A DNA stretch of 11,702 bases from a virus (lineage: Duplodnaviria; Heunggongvirae; Uroviricota; Caudoviricetes): the IMG/VR virus record IMGVR_UViG_2744054854_000004. One strand, given 5' to 3'. The notes under the pieces are model-generated. The model made no database searches and was not told where the DNA came from. It worked only from the letters and a program-made list of their open reading frames with translations. The position numbers were made by a program, and so were the translations under genes. Below, piece by piece: positions 1-11,702 of this stretch. The number at the start of each line of letters is the position of its first letter. The stretch's first letter is position 1.

Positions 1-172
1 TTAAAAGATGAGCGGTTGAAATAAAAATGCATTTTTCCGCTTGTCTTCCTGAGCCGACTCCCTATAATGCGCCACCATCGACACGGCGGATGTGAATCAC
101 TTCACACAAACAGCCGGTTCGGTTGAAGAGAAAAATCCTGAAATTCAGGGTTGACTCTGAAAGAGGAAAGCG
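1..172 (+). promoter_or_regulatory. Fragment of an rRNA operon control region with tandem P1 and P2 promoters, rightward facing, truncated by the gap
   Basis: P1-like: AT-rich UP-like tract about 17..38, -35 TTGTCT 41..46, 16-bp spacer, -10 TATAAT 63..68, GC-rich discriminator GCGCCACC 69..76. P2-like: -35 TTGACT 151..156 in the context GGGTTGACTCTGAAAGAGGAAAGCG that I recall from E. coli rrn P2 regions; its -10 would lie in the N run. Which of the seven rrn operons it is cannot be told from this fragment. Confidence 0.7.
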
Positions 173-272
173 NNNNNNNNNNNNNNNNNNNNNNNNNNNN
201 NNNNNNNNNNNNNNNNNNNNNNNNNNNNNNNNNNNNNNNNNNNNNNNNNNNNNNNNNNNNNNNNNNNNNNNN
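173..272. other. Assembly or scaffold gap (run of exactly 100 N)
   Basis: Counted 100 consecutive N characters; a conventional unknown-size gap. The two sides are not demonstrably adjacent. Confidence 0.98.
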
Positions 273-367
273 AGCCAATAAGCATGATCATCCCCCTGAA
301 TAAAAACCGGAGATGATGCCAGTTAGCCGTTATCTCTGCATTTTCATAAACGTTGGTTTGGGAGAAG
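273..367. repeat. Left copy of a perfect 95-bp inverted repeat (reverse complement of 2095..2189), truncated by the gap
   Basis: Checked base by base: the reverse complement of 273..367 is identical to 2095..2189. It includes an inverted copy of the invertase gene start and upstream region. Confidence 0.9.
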
Positions 368-648
368 GTGCTAACTGGGTTATGTTACCTGGAGGAATGA
401 TAATTCAGCGTGTTTATCTTGGATTTCCTATTGGCACCAATGTAAGACACATAACTTTCCCCCGGTCGTTTACAACAACGAACTATTCCATCTCAATTAA
501 CTGGAATGATATCGGTACTGTAACAACTGAAACACAATCGCCAGCAAATGTGGCGGTTGTTCATCAAACAAAATCATTAACAGGGGCCAGCATCTGGCAG
601 GCAGGTCCCGGAGGATTTAATGTGGACATTATAGCGGTGGGGTATTGA
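313..648 (+). CDS. Tail fibre variable C-terminal segment, cassette A (Mu Sv / P2 gpH C-terminus-like). The ATG at 313 is probably not a real start; the frame is meant to be entered from a constant fibre gene outside the segment
   Basis: ORF crosses the left hix-like site in frame; the first 14 codons lie in the inverted copy of the invertase upstream region. Stop TGA 646..648 is 1 nt before the downstream ATG at 650. Confidence 0.6.
341..366. other. hix/gix/cix-like recombination site (left), 12-2-12 architecture
   Basis: TTTTCATAAACG-TT-GGTTTGGGAGAA: imperfect dyad around a central dinucleotide at 353..354 with the AAACC/GGTTT-type core typical of Hin/Gin/Cin/Pin crossover sites (half-site consensus recalled as TTATCNAAAACC). 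Confidence 0.65.
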
Positions 649-649
649 T

Positions 650-1078
650 ATGTACGTATGGAGCGCTAAAGCAAATGGCTTTTTCCCCATATCGGAGAAA
701 GAAAAATTTGAGGCATCAGGTCTGTGGCCTGATGATGGTGTAATAGTCAGTGAGGAAGAACATAAAAAGTTATTTATGGATATTCCACCAGGAAAACAGA
801 TTGGAACACTGAATGGAAAACCAGCACTGATAGATATTCCTCAGCCGACCAAAAAGGAATTAATAGCTATTGCTGAAGTTAAAAAATCCCAATTACGGGA
901 AAAAGCTGACAGTGAAATATCCTGGCGTCAGGATGCTGTTGATGCTGATATCGCAACTGATGAAGAAACTTCAACTCTCACCGAATGGAAGAAATACCGT
1001 GTGCTGCTGATGCGTGTTGATACTTCAACAGCACCCGATATTGAATGGCCTACGCCTCCGGCAGTTCAGGCCAGATGA
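650..1078 (+). CDS. Tail fibre assembly chaperone, cassette A (Tfa; Mu U / P2 gpG family)
   Basis: 142 aa with the characteristic Tfa C-terminal motif [15 protein letters not shown]; tightly coupled to the upstream fibre segment. Confidence 0.85.
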
Positions 1079-1643
1079 CATCCGGCGCGGTGCTGGTATC
1101 TGTTGCCGTCACCGCGTCAATGTAATCCAGCACAGCGTTAAGCCGGGTTGTTTCTGCCTGCGTCAGTTTCCGCCCGGCCTGTAATTTCAGCTGAATCAGA
1201 CTAATGGAAGCCATTGCTGCATCAATCAGTGACTGGCGCTGTGCTTCTGCCGCTTCTACTGCGGCATCGTGTTGTGCCTCAGTATCTGTCACCCATTTCT
1301 CACCATCCCATTTATCATATGGCGTTAACGGTGAAAGCGTGACATAACCGTCTTTGATGGCACCGATATAATCCACTGTAACAGCTGCGCCATTTTCTGT
1401 TGAGTAAACAGTCTCATTGCGATGGTCTTCTTCATGGCTCCATCCCTTACCCGTGAATACTGCCACTTGCCCCGGAATGTATTCGCCCGGGTCAATACCA
1501 GTGGAACAGGCGGGCATACTTACGCCAGTATTAATATATTCATCAGACCAGCCCGTATATTCAGACGTTACTGCATCATAATAAAAACAACGCATATCGC
1601 CCGGCACTGTAGCCAGTCCATTTTCATCAAAAACAGGTTTCAT
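1050..1643 (-). CDS. Tail fibre assembly chaperone, cassette B (Tfa family), convergent with cassette A
   Basis: 197 aa ending in [17 protein letters not shown]. Its start ATG (1641..1643, minus strand) overlaps the stop TAA of the upstream fibre segment (TAATG). 3' ends of the two tfa genes overlap by 29 bp (1050..1078). Confidence 0.85.
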
Positions 1644-2149
1644 TATGCAGCCCTCACAATATAATTAAAGGCGATGTTACGTGGACGGTTTTCATTAGCT
1701 GTTGGCACGACACGAGAGGCGTCGAATCCAAGGTCATCGGTTTTGCCTATAGCAGTTGTGTTATTCGCCATTGTCGCTGATCGTGTTCCTGCATCGTAAA
1801 AAGCCCCTCTGATTGCATCAAAAGACATGCCGATCCCGCCATCTGCGAATCCCTCAATATTTCTTATTGCATCCCCCTGTGAAGATAATAATTGTCGCCC
1901 GGCATCCACTCCACGTCCGTCATCCCAGCCACGAATAAATTCACCGCGTAAATCAGGCAATTTATTTGTCGGGTAAGCCTTTGCCAGTTCCGGGTATTCT
2001 TCAGCAGAAAAAGCTGCTCCGTTGCATTTTAGCCAGCCTGTTGGCGGAGTGGCTGAGGGCCACGGAACAGGCACACCAACAGGTAATGCAGAGCCTTCTC
2101 CCAAACCAACGTTTATGAAAATGCAGAGATAACGGCTAACTGGCATCAT
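1643..2149 (-). CDS. Tail fibre variable C-terminal segment, cassette B, with a tail-collar-like receptor-binding motif; the annotated start lies outside the crossover site and is probably artefactual
   Basis: Contains GWLKCNGAAFSAEEYPELAKAY...LPDLRGEFIRGW, which matches the phage tail collar domain pattern (C-x-G...YP-L...LPDLRG-F-R). Frame crosses the right hix-like site. Confidence 0.65.
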   Translation of the reverse strand: MMPVSRYLCIFINVGLGEGSALPVGVPVPWPSATPPTGWLKCNGAAFSAEEYPELAKAYPTNKLPDLRGEFIRGWDDGRGVDAGRQLLSSQGDAIRNIEGFADGGIGMSFDAIRGAFYDAGTRSATMANNTTAIGKTDDLGFDASRVVPTANENRPRNIAFNYIVRAA

Positions 2150-2189
2150 CTCCGGTTTTTATTCAGGGGGATGATCATGCTTATTGGCT
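2095..2189. repeat. Right copy of the 95-bp inverted repeat, overlapping the invertase promoter and first codons
   Basis: Exact reverse complement of 273..367. Confidence 0.9.
2096..2121. other. hix/gix/cix-like recombination site (right), about 50 bp upstream of the invertase gene
   Basis: TTCTCCCAAACC-AA-CGTTTATGAAAA, central AA at 2108..2109; mirror image of the left site. Confidence 0.7.
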
Positions 2190-2743
2190 ATGTACGCGTG
2201 TCAACAAATGACCAGAACACCGATTTGCAACGCAATGCACTGAACTGTGCGGGATGTGAGCGGATTTTTGAGGATAAAATCAGTGGCACCAAGTCCGACA
2301 GACCGGGGCTGAAAAAGCTGCTCAGGACACTATCGGCAGGAGACACGCTGGTTGTCTGGAAGCTGGACAGACTGGGGCGCAGTATGCGGCATCTTGTTAC
2401 GCTGATAGAAGAGCTGCGCCAGCGTGGCGTGAATTTCCGAAGCCTGACTGACAGTATTGATACCAGTACCCCAATGGGCCGTTTCTTTTTTCATGTCATG
2501 GGTGCCCTGGCTGAAATGGAACGCGAACTGATAGTTGAACGTACCAGGGCGGGGCTGGCTGCAGCTCGTGCTAAAGGCAGAGTAGGTGGACGCCGTCCTA
2601 AGTTGACCAGCGAACAGTGGGCACAGATTGGGCGTTTACTCGAGGCCGGAGAATCAAGACAGCGTATTGCACTGATTTTTGATGTAGGCGTTTCTACCAT
2701 TTATCGAAAATTTCCGGCAAATAAGAACAATAAATCTCCCTGA
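2177..2743 (+). CDS. pin: Serine-recombinase DNA invertase of the Hin/Gin/Cin/Pin family
   Basis: MLIGYVRVSTNDQNTDLQRNAL... catalytic N-terminus with the active-site Ser in VRVST, conserved LVVWKLDRLGRS and MGRFFFHVMGALAEMERELI, C-terminal HTH (VSTIYRKF). Start chosen at 2177 (MLIGY, 7 nt after SD AGGGGG 2164..2169); the upstream in-frame ATG at 2171 is the alternative. Confidence 0.95.
   Translation: MLIGYVRVSTNDQNTDLQRNALNCAGCERIFEDKISGTKSDRPGLKKLLRTLSAGDTLVVWKLDRLGRSMRHLVTLIEELRQRGVNFRSLTDSIDTSTPMGRFFFHVMGALAEMERELIVERTRAGLAAARAKGRVGGRRPKLTSEQWAQIGRLLEAGESRQRIALIFDVGVSTIYRKFPANKNNKSP
2198..2270. promoter_or_regulatory. Putative Fis-dependent recombinational enhancer (sis-like) inside the 5' end of the invertase gene
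   Basis: GTGTCAACAAATGACC (2198..2213) and a second G/C-bounded AT-centred element about 48 bp downstream (around 2246..2264) resemble the two Fis sites of the hin/gin enhancers, which sit at the same position in those genes. Recalled by similarity, not computed. Confidence 0.45.
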
Positions 2744-2791
2744 ATCAGCTTTATTTTGATTATCCCTGAAAGCAGACAAATACCGTCATTT

Positions 2792-2809
2792 TGTGTGAAT
2801 AACGGTACA
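2792..2809 (+). promoter_or_regulatory. Ogr-type late promoter activator site (TGT-N12-ACA) for the FI tail operon
   Basis: TGT 2792..2794, 12 nt, ACA 2807..2809, centred about 85 bp upstream of the FI ATG, consistent with P2/186/P4 late promoters where this dyad is centred near -55. SD AGGAGG 2871..2876 precedes the FI ATG at 2886. Confidence 0.5.
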
Positions 2810-2885
2810 ACTGCGCTTAGCTGTTTGTCAGGCACAATCACTTCAACATAGGGCGAAGCCTAATCCAATCAGGAGGTTCGCCACT

Positions 2886-4058
2886 ATGGCTCAGGATTAC
2901 CACCACGGGGTGCGCGTTGTTGAAGTCAACGAAGGCACCCGATCCATTACCACGGTGAGCACCGCCATCGTGGGTATGGTCTGCACGGGCGATGATGCCG
3001 ATGCAAAAATGTTTCCTCTTAATAAACCCGTGCTGATCACTGATGTGCTGACTGCCAGCGGTAAAGCGGGTGAGTCAGGCACGCTGGCTCGTTCGCTGGA
3101 TGCCATCGCTGACCAGGCAAAACCCGTGACCGTTGTTGTGCGTGTGCCGCAGGGTGAAACGGAAGAAGAAACCACGACCAATATCATCGGAGCAGTGACC
3201 GCTGAAGGTAAAAAAACAGGCATGAAAGCCCTGTTATCTGCCCAGTCACAGCTCGGCGTTAAACCGCGCATTCTCGGCGTGCCAGGCCACGACACCAAGG
3301 CGGTAGCTACTGAGTTGCTGAGCGTGGCGCAAAGCCTGCGTGGGTTTGCTTACCTGTCAGCGTATGGCTGCAAGACAGTGCAGGAGGCGATCACTTACCG
3401 CGAAAACTTCAGCCAGCGCGAAGGGATGCTGATCTGGCCTGACTTTACTTGCTGGGACACGGTGCTGAATGCCGAAGCAACGGCATATGCCACCGCTCGT
3501 GCGCTCGGTCTGCGCGCCAAAATTGATGAGCAGACTGGATGGCACAAAAGCCTGTCCAACGTGGGCGTGAACGGTGTCACCGGAATTTCTGCAGATGTGT
3601 TCTGGGATCTGCAGGACCCGGCAACCGATGCAGGTCTGCTGAACCAGAACGACGTCACCACGCTTGTGCGTAAAGACGGTTTCCGCTTCTGGGGTTCCCG
3701 CTGCCTGAGTGATGACCCGCTCTTTGCCTTCGAAAACTACACCCGCACGGCGCAGGTGCTGATGGACACGATGGCAGAAGCACACATGTGGGCGGTGGAT
3801 AAACCGCTTAACCCGTCGCTGGCCCGCGACATTATCGAAGGTATCCGCGCCAAAATGCGCAGCCTGGTCAGTCAGGGCTATCTCATTGGTGGTGATTGCT
3901 GGCTGGATGAGTCGGTGAACGACAAAGACACGCTGAAAGCCGGAAAACTCACCATCGACTACGACTACACGCCAGTGCCGCCACTTGAAAACCTGATGCT
4001 GCGTCAGCGCATCACCGATCAGTACCTGGTGAATTTCGCCAGCCAGGTCAGCGCGTAA
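2886..4058 (+). CDS. FI: Contractile tail sheath protein (P2 gpFI homolog)
   Basis: 390 aa; strong recalled similarity to P2 FI ([56 protein letters not shown]). Confidence 0.95.
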
Positions 4059-4067
4059 GGGGACAAC

Positions 4068-4583
4068 ATGGCTTTACCACGCAAATTAAAACACCTGAAC
4101 CTGTTTAACGACGGGAACAACTGGCAGGGGATCGTTGAGTCGCTGACGCTGCCGAAATTTACCCGCAAATATGAGAAGTATCGCGGCGGCGGAATGCCGG
4201 GTGCGGTGGATGTGGATCTGGGGCTTGATGACAGTGCGCTGGACACAGAATTTTCCATTGGTGGTACTGAATTGCTGCTGTTTAAACAGATGGGTAAAGC
4301 CACGGTGGATGGCATCCAGCTGCGCTTTACCGGCTCTATTCAGCGTGACGATACCGGGGAAGTGCAGCCCGTGGAGCTTGTCGTGCGTGGACGTCACAAA
4401 GAAGTGGATTCCGGCGAGTGGAAGACGGGCGAAAGCAACACCACCAAAGTGACCAGTACCAACAGCTACGCGAAGCTGACCATCAATGGTGAGGTGCTCT
4501 ATGAAGTGGACCTTATCAACATGGTGGAAATTGTGGACGGTGTGGACCTGATGGAAGCGCACCGCAACGCCCTCGGCCTCTGA
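4068..4583 (+). CDS. FII: Tail tube protein (P2 gpFII homolog)
   Basis: 171 aa; starts 9 nt after the FI stop; P2 FII-like length and motifs (PRKLK, RDDTGE, VVRGR). Confidence 0.93.
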   Translation: MALPRKLKHLNLFNDGNNWQGIVESLTLPKFTRKYEKYRGGGMPGAVDVDLGLDDSALDTEFSIGGTELLLFKQMGKATVDGIQLRFTGSIQRDDTGEVQPVELVVRGRHKEVDSGEWKTGESNTTKVTSTNSYAKLTINGEVLYEVDLINMVEIVDGVDLMEAHRNALGL

Positions 4584-4637
4584 TATATCTGAACGGCGCG
4601 GGATACCGCGCCAGAACCCAATTGACAGGACAGCAAA

Positions 4638-4940
4638 ATGAGCGATAAGCAGACTGAAAAGACCATTCAACTGGATACCCCCATCAAGCGCGGTAAAACA
4701 GAAATCACCGAAATTGTGCTGCGTAAACCGCAGTCCGGTGCGCTGCGCGGTACACGCCTGCAGGCCATTATGGATATGGATGTAAACGCGATGATGACCG
4801 TGATCCCCCGCATCTCCAGTCCGGCACTGACTGCACAGGAAATTGCAGAGATGGACCCGGCAGATCTCACTGCCATGTCGGTTGAGGTTGTCACTTTTTT
4901 GTTGAAGAAGTCGGTGCTTGCCGGTTTACCGACAGCCTGA
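4638..4940 (+). CDS. E: Tail assembly chaperone gpE (zero-frame product)
   Basis: 100-aa ORF in the P2 E position immediately before the tape measure gene; contains the slippery heptamer near its 3' end. Confidence 0.85.
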   Translation: MSDKQTEKTIQLDTPIKRGKTEITEIVLRKPQSGALRGTRLQAIMDMDVNAMMTVIPRISSPALTAQEIAEMDPADLTAMSVEVVTFLLKKSVLAGLPTA

Positions 4941-5074
4941 CGGTTGACGATCTGGTGGCAGATATCGCCACCATTTTTCACTGGCCGCCATCCGTTACTG
5001 ACGTTATGCCGCTGACCGAAGTGCTGGAATGGCGGTATAAAGCGATTCAGAGAAGCGGGGCCAACGATGAGTGA
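4638..5074 (+). CDS. E': gpE+E' fusion made by programmed -1 ribosomal frameshift at T-TTT-TTG (4895..4901)
   Basis: Slippery heptamer is in the X-XXY-YYZ register of the E frame. The -1 frame stays open from 4898 to TGA 5072..5074 (translated by hand: ...FFVEEVGACRFTDSLTVDDLVADIATIFHWPPSVTDVMPLTEVLEWRYKAIQRSGANDE), ending 8 nt into the T gene, as in the P2 E/E' arrangement. Confidence 0.7.
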
Positions 5075-8000
5075 TAACAACCTGCGTCTGCAGGTCATTC
5101 TTAATGCGGTTGACAAGCTCACCCGCCCATTTCGATCTGCGCAGGCCAGTTCAAGAGAACTGGCTGCTGCTGTCAAAAAATCCCGCGATGCAATAAAGCA
5201 GCTTGATCAGGCCGGGAGCAGTCTGGACAGCTTCCGAAAGCTGCAGGCAGAAAATCAGAAATTAGGCGACAGGCTGAACTATGCCCGCCAGCGTGCAAAT
5301 TTGCTCAGTCAGGAACTGGGAGCGATGGGGCCGCCTTCGCAACGTCAGGTTGTTGCTCTGGGCCGTCAACGGCTGGCTGTTCAGCGCCTGGAAGAACGCC
5401 AGAAAAAGCTGCAGCAGCAGACGGCGCTTGTGCGTGCTGAACTGTACCGGGCGGGAATTTCTGCGAAAGACGATGCGGGAGCAACTGCCCGTTTAGCCCG
5501 TGAAACATCACGTTATAACCAGGAACTTTCGAAACAGGAGGCGCGGCTGAAGCGACTGGGGGAAGCTCAGCGCAGGATGAATGCAGCGCGTGCCAGTTAT
5601 GCCAGCTCGCTGGAGGTGCGCGATCGCATCGCAGGAGCCGGAGCCACTACCACGGCTGCAGGGCTGGCAATGGGTGCGCCAGTGATGGCAGCAGTAAAAA
5701 GCTATACCAGCATGGAAGATGCCATGAAAGGTGTGGCAAAGCAGGTCAATGGTCTGCGTGATGATAATGGCAACCGCACTGCGCGTTTTTACGAAATGCA
5801 GGATGCCATCAAGGCTGCCAGCGAACAGTTGCCGATGGAAAACGGTGCTGTGGACTTTGCCGCACTGGTTGAAGGTGGTGCGCGCATGAACGTCGCAAAT
5901 CCTGACGACAGCTGGGAAGACCAGAAACGTGACCTGCTGGCCTTCGCCAGTACGGCAGCAAAGGCTGCAACAGCCTTTGAGCTGCCAGCGGATGAACTGT
6001 CAGAAAGTCTGGGGAAAATCGCCCAGCTCTACAAAATCCCTACCCGCAATATTGAACAGCTCGGTGATGCGCTGAACTATCTGGATGATAACGCCATGTC
6101 GAAAGGGGCAGACATCATTGATGTCATGCAACGTCTGGGCGGTGTGGCTGACCGTCTGGATTATCGTAAAGCGGCGGCGCTGGGTTCCACCTTCCTGACA
6201 CTGGGCGCTGCGCCGGAGGTTGCAGCCAGTGCAGCAAATGCGATGGTGCGTGAATTGTCCATTGCCACCATGCAGAGCAAGAGTTTCTTTGAAGGGATGA
6301 ATCTGCTGAAACTCAATCCTGAAGTGATTGAAAAGCAGATGACGAAGGATGCGATGGGAACTATCCAGCGTGTGCTGGAGAAGGTGAACGCACTGCCGCA
6401 GGATAAGCGTCTGTCTGCCATGACCATGTTGTTTGGTAAAGAGTTTGGAGATGACGCGGCGAAACTGGCAAACAACCTTCCGGAACTGCAGCGCCAGTTA
6501 AAACTGACAGCGGGCAATGATGCGCTCGGTTCCATGCAGAAAGAATCCGACATCAACAAAGACTCACTTTCTGCTCAGTGGTTGCTGGTCAAAACCGGAG
6601 CGCAGAACACCTTCAGCAGCCTGGGCGAAACGCTGCGCCAGCCGCTGATGGATATTCTGTACACGGTGAAAAGCGTCACGGGGGCGTTGCGTCGCTGGGT
6701 GGAAGCTAACCCGGAACTGACAGGCACACTGATGAAAGCGTCGGCCGTTGTGGCTGCGGTTACCGTCGGCCTCGGCACCTTAGCGGTGGCGCTGGCTGCA
6801 GTGCTGGGGCCGCTGGCAGTGATCCGTCTGGGATTCTCTGTGCTGGGTATCAAAACGTTACCTTCCGTTACGGCAGCAGTAACACGAACCAGCAGCGCGT
6901 TGTCCTGGCTGGCTGGCGCTCCACTGGCACTGCTGCGACGCGGGCTTGCTTCATCGGGCAATGCTGCGGGTTTACTTACTGCGCCGTTGTCATCTTTGCG
7001 CCGTACGGCATCACTGACGGGAAATGTCCTGAAAACTGTAGCAGGTGCGCCAGTTGCACTGTTGCGGTCTGGATTATCCGGTTTACGTGCGGTTGCTGTG
7101 ATGTTTATGAATCCACTGGCGGTACTGCGCGGTGGACTGACCGCCGCAGGCGCGGTGCTGCGAGTGCTGGCATCTGGTCCGCTGGCGATGCTGCGCGTTG
7201 CTCTGTATGCCGTATCTGGTCTGTTAGGTGCTCTGCTCAGTCCGATAGGTCTTGTGGTTACTGCACTGGCGGGCGTGGCGCTGGTTGTCTGGAAATACTG
7301 GCAACCCATCACCGCATTTCTCGGTGGCGTGGTGGAAGGATTCAAAGCGGCGGCAGGTCCCGTCAGTGCTGCATTCGAACCACTTAAGCCTGTGTTTCAG
7401 TGGATTGGCGACAAAGTACAGGCGCTGTGGGGCTGGTTTACTGATCTGCTTACGCCCGTTAAGTCGACCTCTGCCGAACTGCAGAGTGCAGCGGCAATGG
7501 GGCGACGATTCGGGGAGGCACTGGCGGAAGGGCTGAATATGGTCATGCATCCGCTGGACTCCCTGAAATCCGGCGTTTCCTGGTTGCTGGAGAAGCTCGG
7601 CATTGTCAGTAAAGAGGCCGCAAAGGCAAAACTGCCGGAAAGCGTGACGCGTCAGCAACCTGCGACGGTGAATGCAGACGGTAAAGTGATGATGCCATCG
7701 GGTGGTTTTCCATCATGGGGATATGGCTTTGCGGGAATGTATGACAGCGGCGGGTATATCCCGCGCGGGCAGTTTGGCATCGTCGGTGAAAACGGGCCGG
7801 AAATTGTTAACGGCCCGGCAAATGTGACCAGCCGGAGAAATACAGCTGCACTGGCTGCCGTTGTTGCCGGAATGATGGGCGTTGCTGCCGCGCCTGCAGA
7901 GCTTCCACCGTTGCACCCTTTGGCACTTCCCGCGAAAGGCGGCGAAGCGATGGTGAGTCGTGCAGCCACTGTGCCGCCCGTTCAACGGATTGAGGCACCG

Positions 8001-8144
8001 ATGCAGATCATCATTCAGACGCAGCCAGGACAAAGTGCGCAGGATATTGCGCGGGAGGTGGCCCGCCAGCTTGATGAACGTGAACGCAGGCTGAAAGCAA
8101 AAGCCAGGAGTAACTACAGCGATCAGGGGGGATACGACGCATGA
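5067..8144 (+). CDS. T: Tail tape measure protein (P2 gpT homolog)
   Basis: 1025 aa; coiled-coil-rich N-terminal third, Ala/Gly/Leu-rich hydrophobic middle with degenerate peptide repeats, position between E/E' and U. Confidence 0.9.
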   Translation: MSDNNLRLQVILNAVDKLTRPFRSAQASSRELAAAVKKSRDAIKQLDQAGSSLDSFRKLQAENQKLGDRLNYARQRANLLSQELGAMGPPSQRQVVALGRQRLAVQRLEERQKKLQQQTALVRAELYRAGISAKDDAGATARLARETSRYNQELSKQEARLKRLGEAQRRMNAARASYASSLEVRDRIAGAGATTTAAGLAMGAPVMAAVKSYTSMEDAMKGVAKQVNGLRDDNGNRTARFYEMQDAIKAASEQLPMENGAVDFAALVEGGARMNVANPDDSWEDQKRDLLAFASTAAKAATAFELPADELSESLGKIAQLYKIPTRNIEQLGDALNYLDDNAMSKGADIIDVMQRLGGVADRLDYRKAAALGSTFLTLGAAPEVAASAANAMVRELSIATMQSKSFFEGMNLLKLNPEVIEKQMTKDAMGTIQRVLEKVNALPQDKRLSAMTMLFGKEFGDDAAKLANNLPELQRQLKLTAGNDALGSMQKESDINKDSLSAQWLLVKTGAQNTFSSLGETLRQPLMDILYTVKSVTGALRRWVEANPELTGTLMKASAVVAAVTVGLGTLAVALAAVLGPLAVIRLGFSVLGIKTLPSVTAAVTRTSSALSWLAGAPLALLRRGLASSGNAAGLLTAPLSSLRRTASLTGNVLKTVAGAPVALLRSGLSGLRAVAVMFMNPLAVLRGGLTAAGAVLRVLASGPLAMLRVALYAVSGLLGALLSPIGLVVTALAGVALVVWKYWQPITAFLGGVVEGFKAAAGPVSAAFEPLKPVFQWIGDKVQALWGWFTDLLTPVKSTSAELQSAAAMGRRFGEALAEGLNMVMHPLDSLKSGVSWLLEKLGIVSKEAAKAKLPESVTRQQPATVNADGKVMMPSGGFPSWGYGFAGMYDSGGYIPRGQFGIVGENGPEIVNGPANVTSRRNTAALAAVVAGMMGVAAAPAELPPLHPLALPAKGGEAMVSRAATVPPVQRIEAPMQIIIQTQPGQSAQDIAREVARQLDERERRLKAKARSNYSDQGGYDA

Positions 8145-8626
8145 TGATGGTGCTGGGATTGTACGTGTTTATGCTGCGCACCGTGCCGTATCAGGAGCTG
8201 CAGTATCAACGCAGCTGGCGACATGCGGCAAACAGCCGGGTAAACCGACGTCCGTCCACGCAGTTTCTGGGACCGGACAACGACATGCTGACGCTTTCCG
8301 GTGTTCTTATGCCGGAGATAACAGGTGGCAGGCTGTCGTTGCTGGCACTGGAGCAGATGGCAGAACAGGGGAAAGCATGGCCCCTGATTGAAGGCAGCGG
8401 CACGATTTATGGCATGTATGTGATTGAGGGACTGAATCAGACTAAAACGGAGTTTTTCCGCGACGGTATGCCGCGCCGGATTGAGTTCACCCTGTCGCTC
8501 AAACGGGTGGATGAATCCCTGTCCGATATGTTCGGTGATCTCAGTGCGCAACTGAATAATCTGCAGGAAACGGCAACGTCTGCCTTAAGCGATATCAGTA
8601 AAACGGTGGGAGGGCTGCTGTCGTGA
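8141..8626 (+). CDS. U: Tail protein gpU homolog
   Basis: 161 aa; start overlaps the T stop (ATGA at 8141..8144); P2 U-like size and position. Confidence 0.88.
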   Translation: MMMVLGLYVFMLRTVPYQELQYQRSWRHAANSRVNRRPSTQFLGPDNDMLTLSGVLMPEITGGRLSLLALEQMAEQGKAWPLIEGSGTIYGMYVIEGLNQTKTEFFRDGMPRRIEFTLSLKRVDESLSDMFGDLSAQLNNLQETATSALSDISKTVGGLLS

Positions 8627-9723
8627 ATTTCAGCTCTGAACTGCTTAACAAAGGCAACAAAACTCCCGCATTCAGCATCAGTATTGAGGGCAGGGATATC
8701 ACCACTGTGCTGGATAACCGCCTGATGAGTTTGACGCTGACGGATAACCGGGGCTTTGAAGCGGACCAGCTTGATCTGGAGCTGGATGACGCTGACGGAA
8801 AAATCGTGCTGCCGCGCCGTGGTGCGGTCATTACGCTGGCGCTGGGCTGGAAGGGGCAGCCGCTTTTCCCTAAAGGGGCATTCACAGTGGACGAGATTGA
8901 ACACACTGGCGCACCGGACCGCCTGACTATCCGGGCGCGAAGTGCTGATTTTCGGGAAACGCTGAATACCCGCCGTGAAAAATCGTGGCATAAGACCACC
9001 GTCGGGGAAGTGGTGAAGGAAATAGCCGCGCGGCACAAGCTGAAGATGGCACTGGGTAAAGACCTGTCGGATAAGCCCGTGGAGCATATAGACCAGACTA
9101 ATGAGAGTGACGGCAGTTTTCTGATGCGGCTGGCGCGACAGTACGGTGCCATCGCGTCGGTGAAAAATGGCAATCTGTTATTCATCCGGCAGGGGCAGGG
9201 CAAAAGCGCCACTGGTAAACCTCTGCCAGTGATCACTATCACACGCAAGGACGGCGACAGTCACCGATTTACCCTGGCAGATCGCGGAGCCTACACGGGC
9301 GTAATTGCCAGCTGGTTGCATACCCGCGAACCTGCGAAGAAAGAAAGCACCACGGTGAAGCGTAAGCGCAGAACTAAGAAGCAGAAGAAAGAGCCAGAAG
9401 CGAAGCAGGGCGATTACCTGGTGGGTACGGATGAAAACGTGCTGGTACTTAATCGCACTTATGCCAACCGGAGCAACGCCGAACGAGCGGCGAAAATGCA
9501 GTGGGAACGCCTGCAACGCGGCGTTGCGTCATTTTCGCTACAACTGGCAGAAGGGCGGGCAGATCTCTACACGGAAATGCCTGTGAAGGTCAGTGGTTTT
9601 AAACAGCCGATAGATGATGCGGAATGGACCATTACGACTCTGACACATACCGTCAGCCCGGATAACGGTTTTACAACCAGTATTGAACTCGAAGTGAAGA
9701 TTGATGATCTTGAAATGGAATAA
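8623..9723 (+). CDS. D: Tail protein gpD homolog (late gene D)
   Basis: 366 aa; GTG start overlapping the U stop (GTGA 8623..8626); last gene of the P2 tail operon before ogr. Contains a Lys/Arg-rich stretch (KRKRRTKKQKKEPEAK). Confidence 0.88.
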   Translation: MNFSSELLNKGNKTPAFSISIEGRDITTVLDNRLMSLTLTDNRGFEADQLDLELDDADGKIVLPRRGAVITLALGWKGQPLFPKGAFTVDEIEHTGAPDRLTIRARSADFRETLNTRREKSWHKTTVGEVVKEIAARHKLKMALGKDLSDKPVEHIDQTNESDGSFLMRLARQYGAIASVKNGNLLFIRQGQGKSATGKPLPVITITRKDGDSHRFTLADRGAYTGVIASWLHTREPAKKESTTVKRKRRTKKQKKEPEAKQGDYLVGTDENVLVLNRTYANRSNAERAAKMQWERLQRGVASFSLQLAEGRADLYTEMPVKVSGFKQPIDDAEWTITTLTHTVSPDNGFTTSIELEVKIDDLEME

Positions 9724-9736
9724 AGCGTTCTCAATA

Positions 9737-9764
9737 TTGATATTTTGTGTATCATTACAATAAT
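9737..9764 (+). promoter_or_regulatory. Putative sigma70 promoter for ogr
   Basis: -35 TTGATA 9737..9742, 16-bp spacer, -10 AATAAT 9759..9764, in the AT-rich D-ogr intergenic region. Confidence 0.35.
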
Positions 9765-9791
9765 TCTGATAGCAAAGGTAGGGATCTGGAT

Positions 9792-10010
9792 ATGATGAAT
9801 TGTCCAAAGTGTGGTCATGCGGCACACACAAGGAGCAGTTTTCAAGTAACTGAAAGCACCAAAGAGCGTTACTGCCAGTGCCAAAATATTAACTGCGGGA
9901 GCACTTTTGTTACCCATGAAACAGTGGTCCGGTTTATTGTGACACCCGCACTGATTGCTACTGCTCCTCCACATCCATTGCCAGGTGGTCAGGGGCATAT
10001 GAATTTTTGA
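9792..10010 (+). CDS. ogr: Ogr/Delta-family zinc-finger late gene transcriptional activator
   Basis: 72 aa from the ATG at 9792: MMNCPKCGHAAHTRSS...TKERYCQCQNINCGSTF...HPLPGGQ closely matches recalled P2 Ogr (MFHCPLCQHAAHARTS...TKERYHQCQNVNCSATF...HPLPSGQ), with the four Cys at the same positions. The longer ORF from 9747 would start inside the putative promoter. Confidence 0.88.
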   Translation: MMNCPKCGHAAHTRSSFQVTESTKERYCQCQNINCGSTFVTHETVVRFIVTPALIATAPPHPLPGGQGHMNF

Positions 10011-10642: not shown

Positions 10643-11005
10643 TGGTGGAGCTGGCGGGAGTTGAACCCGCGTCCGAAATTCCTACATCCTCGGTACTACA
10701 TGCTTAGTCAGTCTTTACATTCGCTTGCCAGCTGCGGACGGACACGCCACTAACAAACTAGCCTGATTAAGTTTTAACGCTTCAACCCCAGGCAGGGCTT
10801 CCACGCGATCTCTTTTGGGTTTGACCTCTCTTGATCCCCGTTCTAAGAGCGGAGGCTAGGGAGAGAGGGCTCTAAGCAGGTTATTAAGCTGCTAAAGCGT
10901 AGTTTTCGTCGTTTGCGACTATTTTTTGCGGCTTTTTACGAGGCCAACCGCCCCTCGGCATGCACCTTGGGTTTCGCAAATCCCGTCGAATCCAGAATCA
11001 GCCCC
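10643..11005 (-). ncRNA. ssrA: tmRNA (SsrA, 10Sa RNA), mature 363-nt form
   Basis: Reverse complement reads GGGGCUGAUUCUGGAUUCGACGGG...CGGGUUCAACUCCCGCCAGCUCCACCA, matching E. coli tmRNA as recalled. Tag reading frame GCA AAC GAC GAA AAC UAC GCU UUA GCA GCU UAA (ANDENYALAA) at 10884..10916 on the minus strand. Confidence 0.97.
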
Positions 11006-11219: not shown

Positions 11220-11702
11220 TTAACGGTGGGCGTTTTTCATGATACGTGCTTTATCCACCTGCCATTCGCGCTCTTTGATATCTGAACGTTTATCGTGCTG
11301 TTTCTTACCTTTGGCGACGCCGATTTTCACTTTGCACCAGGCATTTTTCCAGTACAGGGAGAGCGCCACTACGGTATAGCCTTCTCGATTGACGCGACCG
11401 TACAATGAGTCCAGTTCGCGCTGGTTGAGAAGTAACTTGCGGGTACGGGTAGGATCGCACACCACATGCGTGGAGGCCACGGCCATTGGCGTGATGTTAG
11501 CGCCAAACAGAAATGCCTCTCCGTCACGCAGAAGGACGTAGCTGTCGCTGATATTGGCTTTTCCTGCGCGCAGGGATTTAACTTCCCAGCCTTGCAGGGC
11601 AAGTCCCGCTTCGAACTCTTCTTCGATAAAGTATTCGTGACGGGCGCGCTTGTTAAGCGCGATGGTCGCTGAACCAGGTTTATGTGCTTTTTTCTTCGTC
11701 AT
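11220..11702 (-). CDS. smpB: SsrA-binding protein SmpB (trans-translation cofactor)
   Basis: 160 aa, [80 protein letters not shown]..., matches E. coli SmpB as recalled; canonical smpB-ssrA tandem on the same strand. The start codon is the last three bases of the window. Confidence 0.97.

Follow-up and report, generated by a model that had tools for sequence, protein, structure and literature searches.

A 96-nucleotide inverted repeat at the invertible tail-fibre segment of a P2-like prophage is probably a by-product of assembling DNA with both segment orientations

Does the edge of an invertible tail-fibre segment in a P2-like prophage really carry a second copy of the invertase promoter? 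The question is raised by IMG/VR record IMGVR_UViG_2744054854_000004, a stretch of 11,702 nucleotides (nt) referred to here as the window. The locus is a P2/Fels-2-like prophage with ssrA as its insertion site, of which the window covers the right-hand part. It encodes Pin, a serine DNA invertase, next to a 1.7-kb segment that holds two alternative tail-fibre C-terminal exons, named Sv and Sv′, together with their chaperone genes. A perfect inverted repeat flanks this segment and places a copy of the start of pin at its far end, where a tail-fibre gene would be expected from the layout of intact relatives. The analysis points to an origin in assembly, with DNA in which the segment lay in both orientations as the probable source.

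A repeat search of the 11.7-kb window identified a single outstanding inverted repeat, formed by positions 273-368 and 2094-2189, with 96 nt in each arm, 100% complementarity and a spacer of 1725 nt. A script check confirmed that the reverse-complementarity of the two arms is exact. The runner-up in the same window extends over 35 nt at 71%, and the 96-nt repeat is far beyond chance. Each arm is composed of 2 nt inside the crossover site, the 26-bp crossover site itself and 68 nt outside it (273-340 in the left arm, 2122-2189 in the right). Both sites read TTCTCCCAAACC AA CGTTTATGAAAA from the inside outward and lie in inverted orientation. The outer part of the arm ends in the start of the invertase gene, ATG CTT ATT GGC T, with the ATG at 2177. 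The initial annotation gave the length of the repeat as 95 bp, which is corrected here to 96 nt. Its description was otherwise accurate: the repeat was said to run 68 bp past the crossover site with zero mismatches, and 68/68 identity was found; the left arm was said to hold an inverted copy of the pin upstream region and first codons, and 13 nt of pin coding sequence are included.

The left arm begins at a break in the record. Positions 173-272 are exactly 100 N, and position 273, the first base of the left arm, follows directly. A contig edge within the scaffold thus truncates the repeat, and the 96-nt arm length is set by that edge and has no biological meaning. An exact search with the tape-measure protein matched one record only, LWDC01000001.1 of GCA_001640145.1, a 4.6-Mb pseudo-chromosome. 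This is the source record, and the window is identical to positions 4935-16636 of the locus extracted from it (L004). To the left of the gap the record reads metNIQ-rcsF-...-gmhB followed by the rrnH promoter region. Window positions 1-172 begin right after gmhB and break off within the rrn repeat, 190 nt before the 16S gene (upstream of rrsH). To the right of the gap more than 17 kb of unbroken contig runs through the segment, the invertase gene, a P2-like tail module, ssrA, smpB and more chromosomal genes. The gmhB-rrnH region lies at ~0.22 Mb in K-12 and the ssrA-smpB region at ~2.75 Mb. With ~2.5 Mb between the two in K-12, the gap reflects scaffolding and not an adjacency. The two halves of L004 (1-5206 and 5207-23078) are joined over this gap and are not to be taken as synteny. 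The rest of the prophage, comprising the constant part of the tail fibre, the baseplate, the capsid and the integrase, must lie elsewhere in the record.

The coding capacity of the segment shows what the break has removed. Translation of the window as assembled leaves both variable exons in the silent configuration and yields no complete tail-fibre gene. In front of Sv the pin leader supplies a pseudo-N-terminus, giving an open reading frame (ORF) of 111 amino acids (aa) at 313-648. The silent Sv′ ORF likewise reaches 2149 through a pin-leader pseudo-N-terminus, and from residue 15 it matches the 504-aa tail fibre of E. coli LR-21-1 (L016) at residue 351. The crossover site is in frame and encodes the ...GLGEG that opens both variable exons. 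All tested traits of the Din family of invertase systems hold in the window except the in-frame fusion to the constant tail-fibre part: a far site in frame inside the tail-fibre gene is missing here and present in the intact L016, L025, L006 and L008. A blastn comparison of the window with L016 found no counterpart of the tail-fibre constant region. Since this constant part is absent here but occurs in every intact relative, the record is incomplete or artefactual and does not represent another system. The silent exons and the lack of a complete tail-fibre gene fit an artefact better than a functional phage.

Intact prophages were used to determine how the two ends of the segment are normally built. 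The comparators were L006, L008 and L009, which have an identical Pin; L016, a finished genome with a 68/68 match to the pin leader; and L025 and L027, which contain the exact 111-aa ORF. B2C (H39) had been considered as an intact flipped comparator and was dropped because it is a prophage remnant with the tail-fibre N-terminus deleted; L016, L025 and L027 were used instead. The pin-proximal site of the intact relatives is the same as that of the window. Their far site reads TTCTCCCAAACC AA GGTATG(C/T)GAGAA and runs on into tail-fibre coding sequence; in L025 the constant flank of the tail-fibre gene, read outward from the site, is GACCAGCTACATCCTTTCCACTCAAATTGGTAAGCG. The natural repeat between the two sites is only ~16 nt, consisting of the 2 bases inside the site, the inner half-site and the central AA. 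The left junction of the window passes from the end of Sv through the inner half-site and the AA into a pin-type outer half-site and the pin leader. Serine invertases cut at the central dinucleotide, and each outer half-site stays with its own flank. The left junction of the window is thus the exact product of an inversion.

The same conclusion follows from the alignment of the window with an intact prophage. Window positions 273-2112 are collinear by blastn with L016 6001-7840 on the plus strand, and 2094-8189 with L016 6096-1 on the minus strand. Both collinear blocks share L016 6001-6096, and therefore both arms of the window derive from one locus of an intact prophage. The 248-nt left junction occurs at full length in 81 finished E. 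coli genomes as an ordinary junction between a gp53-like exon and the recombinase gene, and the exact 111-aa junction ORF stands beside pin in two intact prophages and beside an N-gap only in the source record. A true left junction, that of L002, does not resemble the pin leader beyond the site. The 68-nt pin leader was found at 986 places in 874 finished E. coli genomes, with a median of 1, and once in each of the other loci with the same pin, L006-L008 and L011-L014 among them. The duplicated-arm structure was not found in finished genomes with the same element, which have one leader copy per prophage, and no such hairpin is present in further draft contigs interrupted close to pin (L010-L014). 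These five loci, from draft and metagenome assemblies, account for 5 of the 10 places listed for the Pin protein. Their contigs end 35-1800 nt upstream of pin, in or at the edge of the invertible segment, and assemblies break often at this switch.

The repeat is thus probably the by-product of an assembly from mixed-orientation reads in which the assembler carried the contig end into the junction of the flipped state. The outer 68 nt of the left arm are most likely the pin flank of flipped molecules and not a second genomic copy. In the real molecule the segment would lie between pin on one side and the constant 5′ part of the tail-fibre gene on the other, and the sequenced DNA would have held both segment orientations. 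The assembler would have built the segment once, with the Sv′ end joined to pin, and at the Sv end would have taken reads of the opposite orientation, in which Sv is joined to pin. A de Bruijn or read-overlap assembler would be expected to enter the alternative junction for ~k-1 bases or one read length and to stop at sequence already used. The contig end would accordingly have halted about one k-mer or read length (96 nt) into that sequence, and the scaffolder would have added the 100-N gap.

Reads covering the pin-Sv junction must have existed, because the ~16-nt shared core is too short to bridge the Sv end and the pin flank in any assembler. We infer that the simplest source of both pin-Sv and pin-Sv′ reads is a culture with both orientations; mixed orientations are the documented norm. 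The segments of e14 and of P2-like prophages are present in both orientations in single-colony cultures of E. coli, often near 1:1 and about equally for e14 (Goldberg 2014, PMC4272514). In EC958 ~50% of the reads were flipped and spurious extra contigs arose, with a warning on artefactual duplications in phage regions (Forde 2014, PMC4134206). Both orientations also occur across the genomes compared here: the Collar-domain exon lies by pin in the window and in L013, and the gp53-like exon lies by pin in L006-L009, L016, L025 and L027. The unbroken contig of more than 17 kb, which continues through the tail genes into the chromosome, argues against a second close copy of the prophage. A contig edge built from flipped-orientation reads had been proposed in the initial annotation, and the N-gap, the junction anatomy, the single L016 locus and the 81 genomes all support it. 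The same annotation took the repeat as direct evidence of ongoing inversion; such inversion is likely, but the evidence is indirect.

Several points weigh against the assembly explanation. The coexistence of the two orientations in this culture is deduced from the assembled sequence alone. A real second pin 5′ region, identical over at least 96 nt, would give the same contig end, and a finished genome with a pin′-segment-pin layout exists (bR_120_Kylling). An equal k-mer overhang was expected at both contig edges. The last 98 nt before the gap (75-172) are identical to the K-12 rrnH and rrnE leaders, so the overhangs compare as 98 nt on the rrn side and 96 nt on the pin side, similar but not equal, with the rrn figure taken from the K-12 paralogues as a proxy for the source strain. 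The like size of the overhangs at the two edges speaks for the assembly explanation but is suggestive only. A literature search for the LWDC accession gave no paper on the assembly, the assembler or its parameters.

The structure could instead be real. Two P2-like prophages would have undergone an exchange, site-specific or homologous, at their invertible regions, which inverted the DNA between them and left a chromosome reading pin(-), segment, pin(+), with the contig broken because the pin 5′ regions are identical over at least 96 nt. This explanation is improbable, although a finished-genome precedent exists in which the predicted reciprocal junction was found, ~10% of the leader-bearing genomes contain at least two related copies (986 places in 874 genomes), and a de Bruijn contig would stop at the same base. 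The arms of the precedent differ from each other and from those of the window (95.8-96.8%), whereas the window arms are 100% identical. The two pin genes of the precedent are ~81% identical and its assembly reads straight through, whereas the window halts at a gap. If another prophage carried an identical leader, it would be of the same lineage and should fragment the unbroken contig of more than 17 kb. Among the matches listed, the layout occurs in 1 of ~2900 finished genomes with matches. It is accordingly quite improbable that the left arm represents a true additional pin 5′ region marking a chromosomal inversion bounded by Pin sites between two P2-like prophages. If this were true, Din-family invertases would flip chromosomal intervals of ~100 kb between prophages, and both phages would be locked in a tail-fibre-less or double-tail-fibre state.

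The precedent itself is E. coli bR_120_Kylling (NZ_CP182374.1; L030/L003, L031, H14). This genome has two different P2-like prophages, one at pflA/pflB and one beside ybjL, which have swapped halves. Its crossover sites lie at record positions 2141687, 2143560, 2237355 and 2239174. One junction joins V-W-J-I-tail fibre-tfa to tfa′-tail fibre′-I′-J′-W′-V′, and the other reads ogr..FI-pin(-), segment, pin(+)-FI..ogrK. The reciprocal junction between two tail-fibre genes was predicted beforehand and was found 95.7 kb away. The outer half-sites are both pin-type in one site pair and both tail-fibre-type in the other. The chromosomal genes pflA...ybjL are inverted between the junctions, giving a 95.7-kb inversion with end points exactly at the invertase crossover sites. 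A real duplication of the pin promoter had been called unusual at the outset, which is correct but not absolute, as bR_120_Kylling has such a structure. A literature search surfaced no description of invertase-site-bounded inversions between prophages, and the 95.7-kb inversion is a more interesting lead than the 96-nt repeat.

An origin without ongoing inversion would also be conceivable if two elements, the prophage and an e14-like element or a remnant, carried near-identical segments that were collapsed in assembly, so that the left edge belonged to a pin junction fixed in the second element. This explanation too is improbable. In its favour, the segment is a mosaic that moves between elements, window positions 273-2114 are matched best (99.2%) in the e14-like element of GF8 and GF161, and prophage remnants with a pin-Sv junction and a deleted tail fibre exist, B2C being an example. 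The e14-like pinE leader matches the left arm at 34/68 positions ungapped, or at ~80% with four single-base gaps, whereas the left arm is 68/68 identical to the window's own pin leader, and the exact leader belongs to the P2-like lineage. An e14-like pinE origin of the left arm was rejected on this ground. A further copy from the P2-like lineage is disfavoured by the unbroken contig. A technical chimera without recombination, formed by template-switching at a short inverted repeat in the library or by an assembler or scaffolder error, is very unlikely: hairpin chimeras at inverted repeats do arise in sequencing libraries and the pseudo-chromosome contains arbitrary joins (rrnH by the ssrA-region contig), but the junction falls exactly at the predicted exchange point of the invertase and equals the natural junction of 81 finished genomes, a shared repeat of ~16 nt cannot link paths in any assembler without real junction reads, and the invertase is intact.

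The features of the window are collected in the table. The invertase contains the Resolvase (PF00239, E=2.3e-53) and HTH_7 (PF02796, E=5.8e-16) domains, and residues 1-183 align with the phage Mu Gin structures 3uj3 and 4m6f (E=1e-92). Its N-terminus, MLIGYVRVSTNDQ (MLIGYVRVST...), contains the catalytic serine motif YVRVST with Ser9. The same Pin protein is found in at least 24 contigs, Salmonella among them. The related Hin, Gin and Cin systems require a Fis-dependent recombinational enhancer in the 5′ part of the invertase gene. The crossover sites of the window fit the Din-family consensus in Table 3 of PMC4134206.

Table. Features of the 11,702-nt window.
Feature	Coordinates	Strand	Remarks
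End of unrelated contig, gmhB-rrnH intergenic region with rrn P1/P2 promoters	1..172	+	matches every E. coli genome, median 3 places
Scaffold gap, 100 N	173..272	.	joins contigs from the rrnH and ssrA regions, which are not adjacent in K-12
Inverted exact copy of pin leader and first 13 nt of pin coding sequence (outer 68 nt of left arm)	273..340	-	68/68 identical to reverse-complemented 2122-2189 and to the lone pin leaders of L016 and L015
Left crossover site, 26 bp	341..366	-	exact inverted copy of right site, pin-type outer half CGTTTATGAAAA included
Variable tail-fibre C-terminal exon Sv, gp53-like C domain	355..648	+	PF21882; starts at ...GLGEG
Tail-fibre assembly (chaperone) gene, partner of Sv	650..1078	+	PF02413, E=1e-33
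Tail-fibre assembly (chaperone) gene, partner of Sv′	1050..1643	-	PF02413, E=3.9e-28
Alternative variable C-terminal exon Sv′, Collar domain	1643..2107	-	PF07484
Right (pin-proximal) crossover site, 26 bp, TTCTCCCAAACC AA CGTTTATGAAAA	2096..2121	+	identical in L006, L007, L009, L011, L013, L014, L025
Genuine pin leader	2122..2176	+	with 2177-2189 forms the outer right arm; many finished genomes have this leader in single copy at 100% identity
Pin/Fin-type serine DNA invertase, 188 aa	2177..2743	+	intact to stop; alternative ATG at 2171 gives 190 aa
Tail module, FI to ogr	2886..10010	+	P2-like
FI, sheath	2886..4058	+	P2-like
FII, tube	4068..4583	+	P2-like
E	4638..4940	+	P2-like
T, tape measure	5067..8144	+	P2-like
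U	8141..8626	+	P2-like
D	8623..9723	+	P2-like
ogr	9792..10010	+	P2-like
ssrA, transfer-messenger RNA gene	10643..11005	-	prophage right end (attachment region)
smpB, after ssrA	11220..11702	-	

The segment between the arms (369-2093) is a mosaic that is exchanged among unrelated phage backbones. It is matched best, at 99.2%, in the e14-like element, which has a Mu-type baseplate. P2-like prophages in which the flanking pin and tail genes match at 98% have a segment that matches at only 96-97%, or another Sv′ exon (L025). The invertase also occurs apart from any segment. In Salmonella Typhi Ty2 (AE014613.1), around positions 5926-6573 of the locus (L005), there is an identical 190-aa Pin, with a site, TTCTTGAAAACCAACGTTTATGAAAA, that differs at 3/26 positions. 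This gene lies at the edge of a P2-like tail-module remnant by iroBCD, with neither an invertible segment nor a tail-fibre gene. It is an orphan invertase that could act in trans.

A related effect may be present in the 'complete' assembly of E. coli 13P477T, in which four records (L028, L029, H70, H72) each have an identical pin leader. Two of its 'circular plasmids', p13P477T-6 (22.6 kb) and p13P477T-1 (15.2 kb), consist of pieces from the tail region of a P2-like prophage (I, tail fibre, chaperones, pin, FI, FII, E, T) with many frameshifts. These small 'plasmids' are probably spurious contigs, either of the alternative allele or of uncorrected long reads, and are the kind of artefact that Forde et al. 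2014 (PMC4134206) warned of.

Neither the switch nor the assembly effect is new, and the locus holds no new genomic feature. GCA_001640145.1 (LWDC01000001.1) is not evidence for a duplicated pin promoter or for a tail-fibre-less prophage, and its order of rrnH, gap and phage is a scaffolding join and not biology. If the mixed-orientation explanation is right, the overhang would be a free sign of an active prophage invertase in the sequenced culture, as would be expected from earlier work (PMC4272514, PMC4134206).

The closest known systems are the P2-like prophages Fels-2 and SopE-phi, with Fin, a Pin homologue. Both sit at ssrA, as does the prophage here. They share with the window the order tail fibre, invertible segment, invertase, FI-FII-E-T-U-D-ogr (LT2 STM2702-2706), and the identical 190-aa Pin is found in Salmonella genomes, Typhi Ty2 included. 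Prophages of this type are those of S. Typhimurium LT2 (STM2702-2706), where programmed inversion has been noted, and of LT7, with alternative C-termini fused to a constant N-terminus (PMC7953296). The element is the E. coli counterpart of LT2 STM2702-2706, of the Fels-2/SopE-phi type. It differs from Fels-2 in its host, E. coli, and in that the constant tail-fibre part and everything to the left of it are absent, with the inverted pin leader and the gap in their place.

The P segment and PinE of e14 in E. coli K-12, reportedly described by Plasterk and van de Putte in 1985, form the same kind of switch. The pin-proximal site of the e14-like L001 (GF8) differs from that of the window at 1/26 nt, and the segment interior of the e14-like elements in GF8 and GF161 is 99% identical to that of the window. 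Their backbone is another one, with Mu-type baseplate genes, and their pinE leader is clearly unlike that of the window. The Mu G segment with Gin and the P1 C segment with Cin have, as here, 26-bp sites with a central dinucleotide and two mirrored tail-fibre C-termini with chaperones. The invertase of the window is a full-length Gin homologue, whereas the site sequences and the segment content differ from those of Mu and P1.

The long inverted repeats known from these systems, 0.6 kb in P1 and 508 bp in EC958 Phi1, lie inside the segment (PMC4134206). Unlike the repeat in the window, none runs outward over the start of the invertase gene. In bR_120_Kylling the segment lies between inverted pin genes as in the window, but there are two prophages with different pins, the arms are not identical and the sequence is contiguous. 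The alternative-allele contigs of the EC958 prophage tail fibres (PMC4134206) have the same cause and consequence as proposed for the window, and the Phi2 sites resemble those of the window. The EC958 contigs are whole extra contigs of 8-13 kb from PacBio reads, whereas in the window the effect is limited to a contig edge that overhangs by 96 nt next to a scaffold gap.

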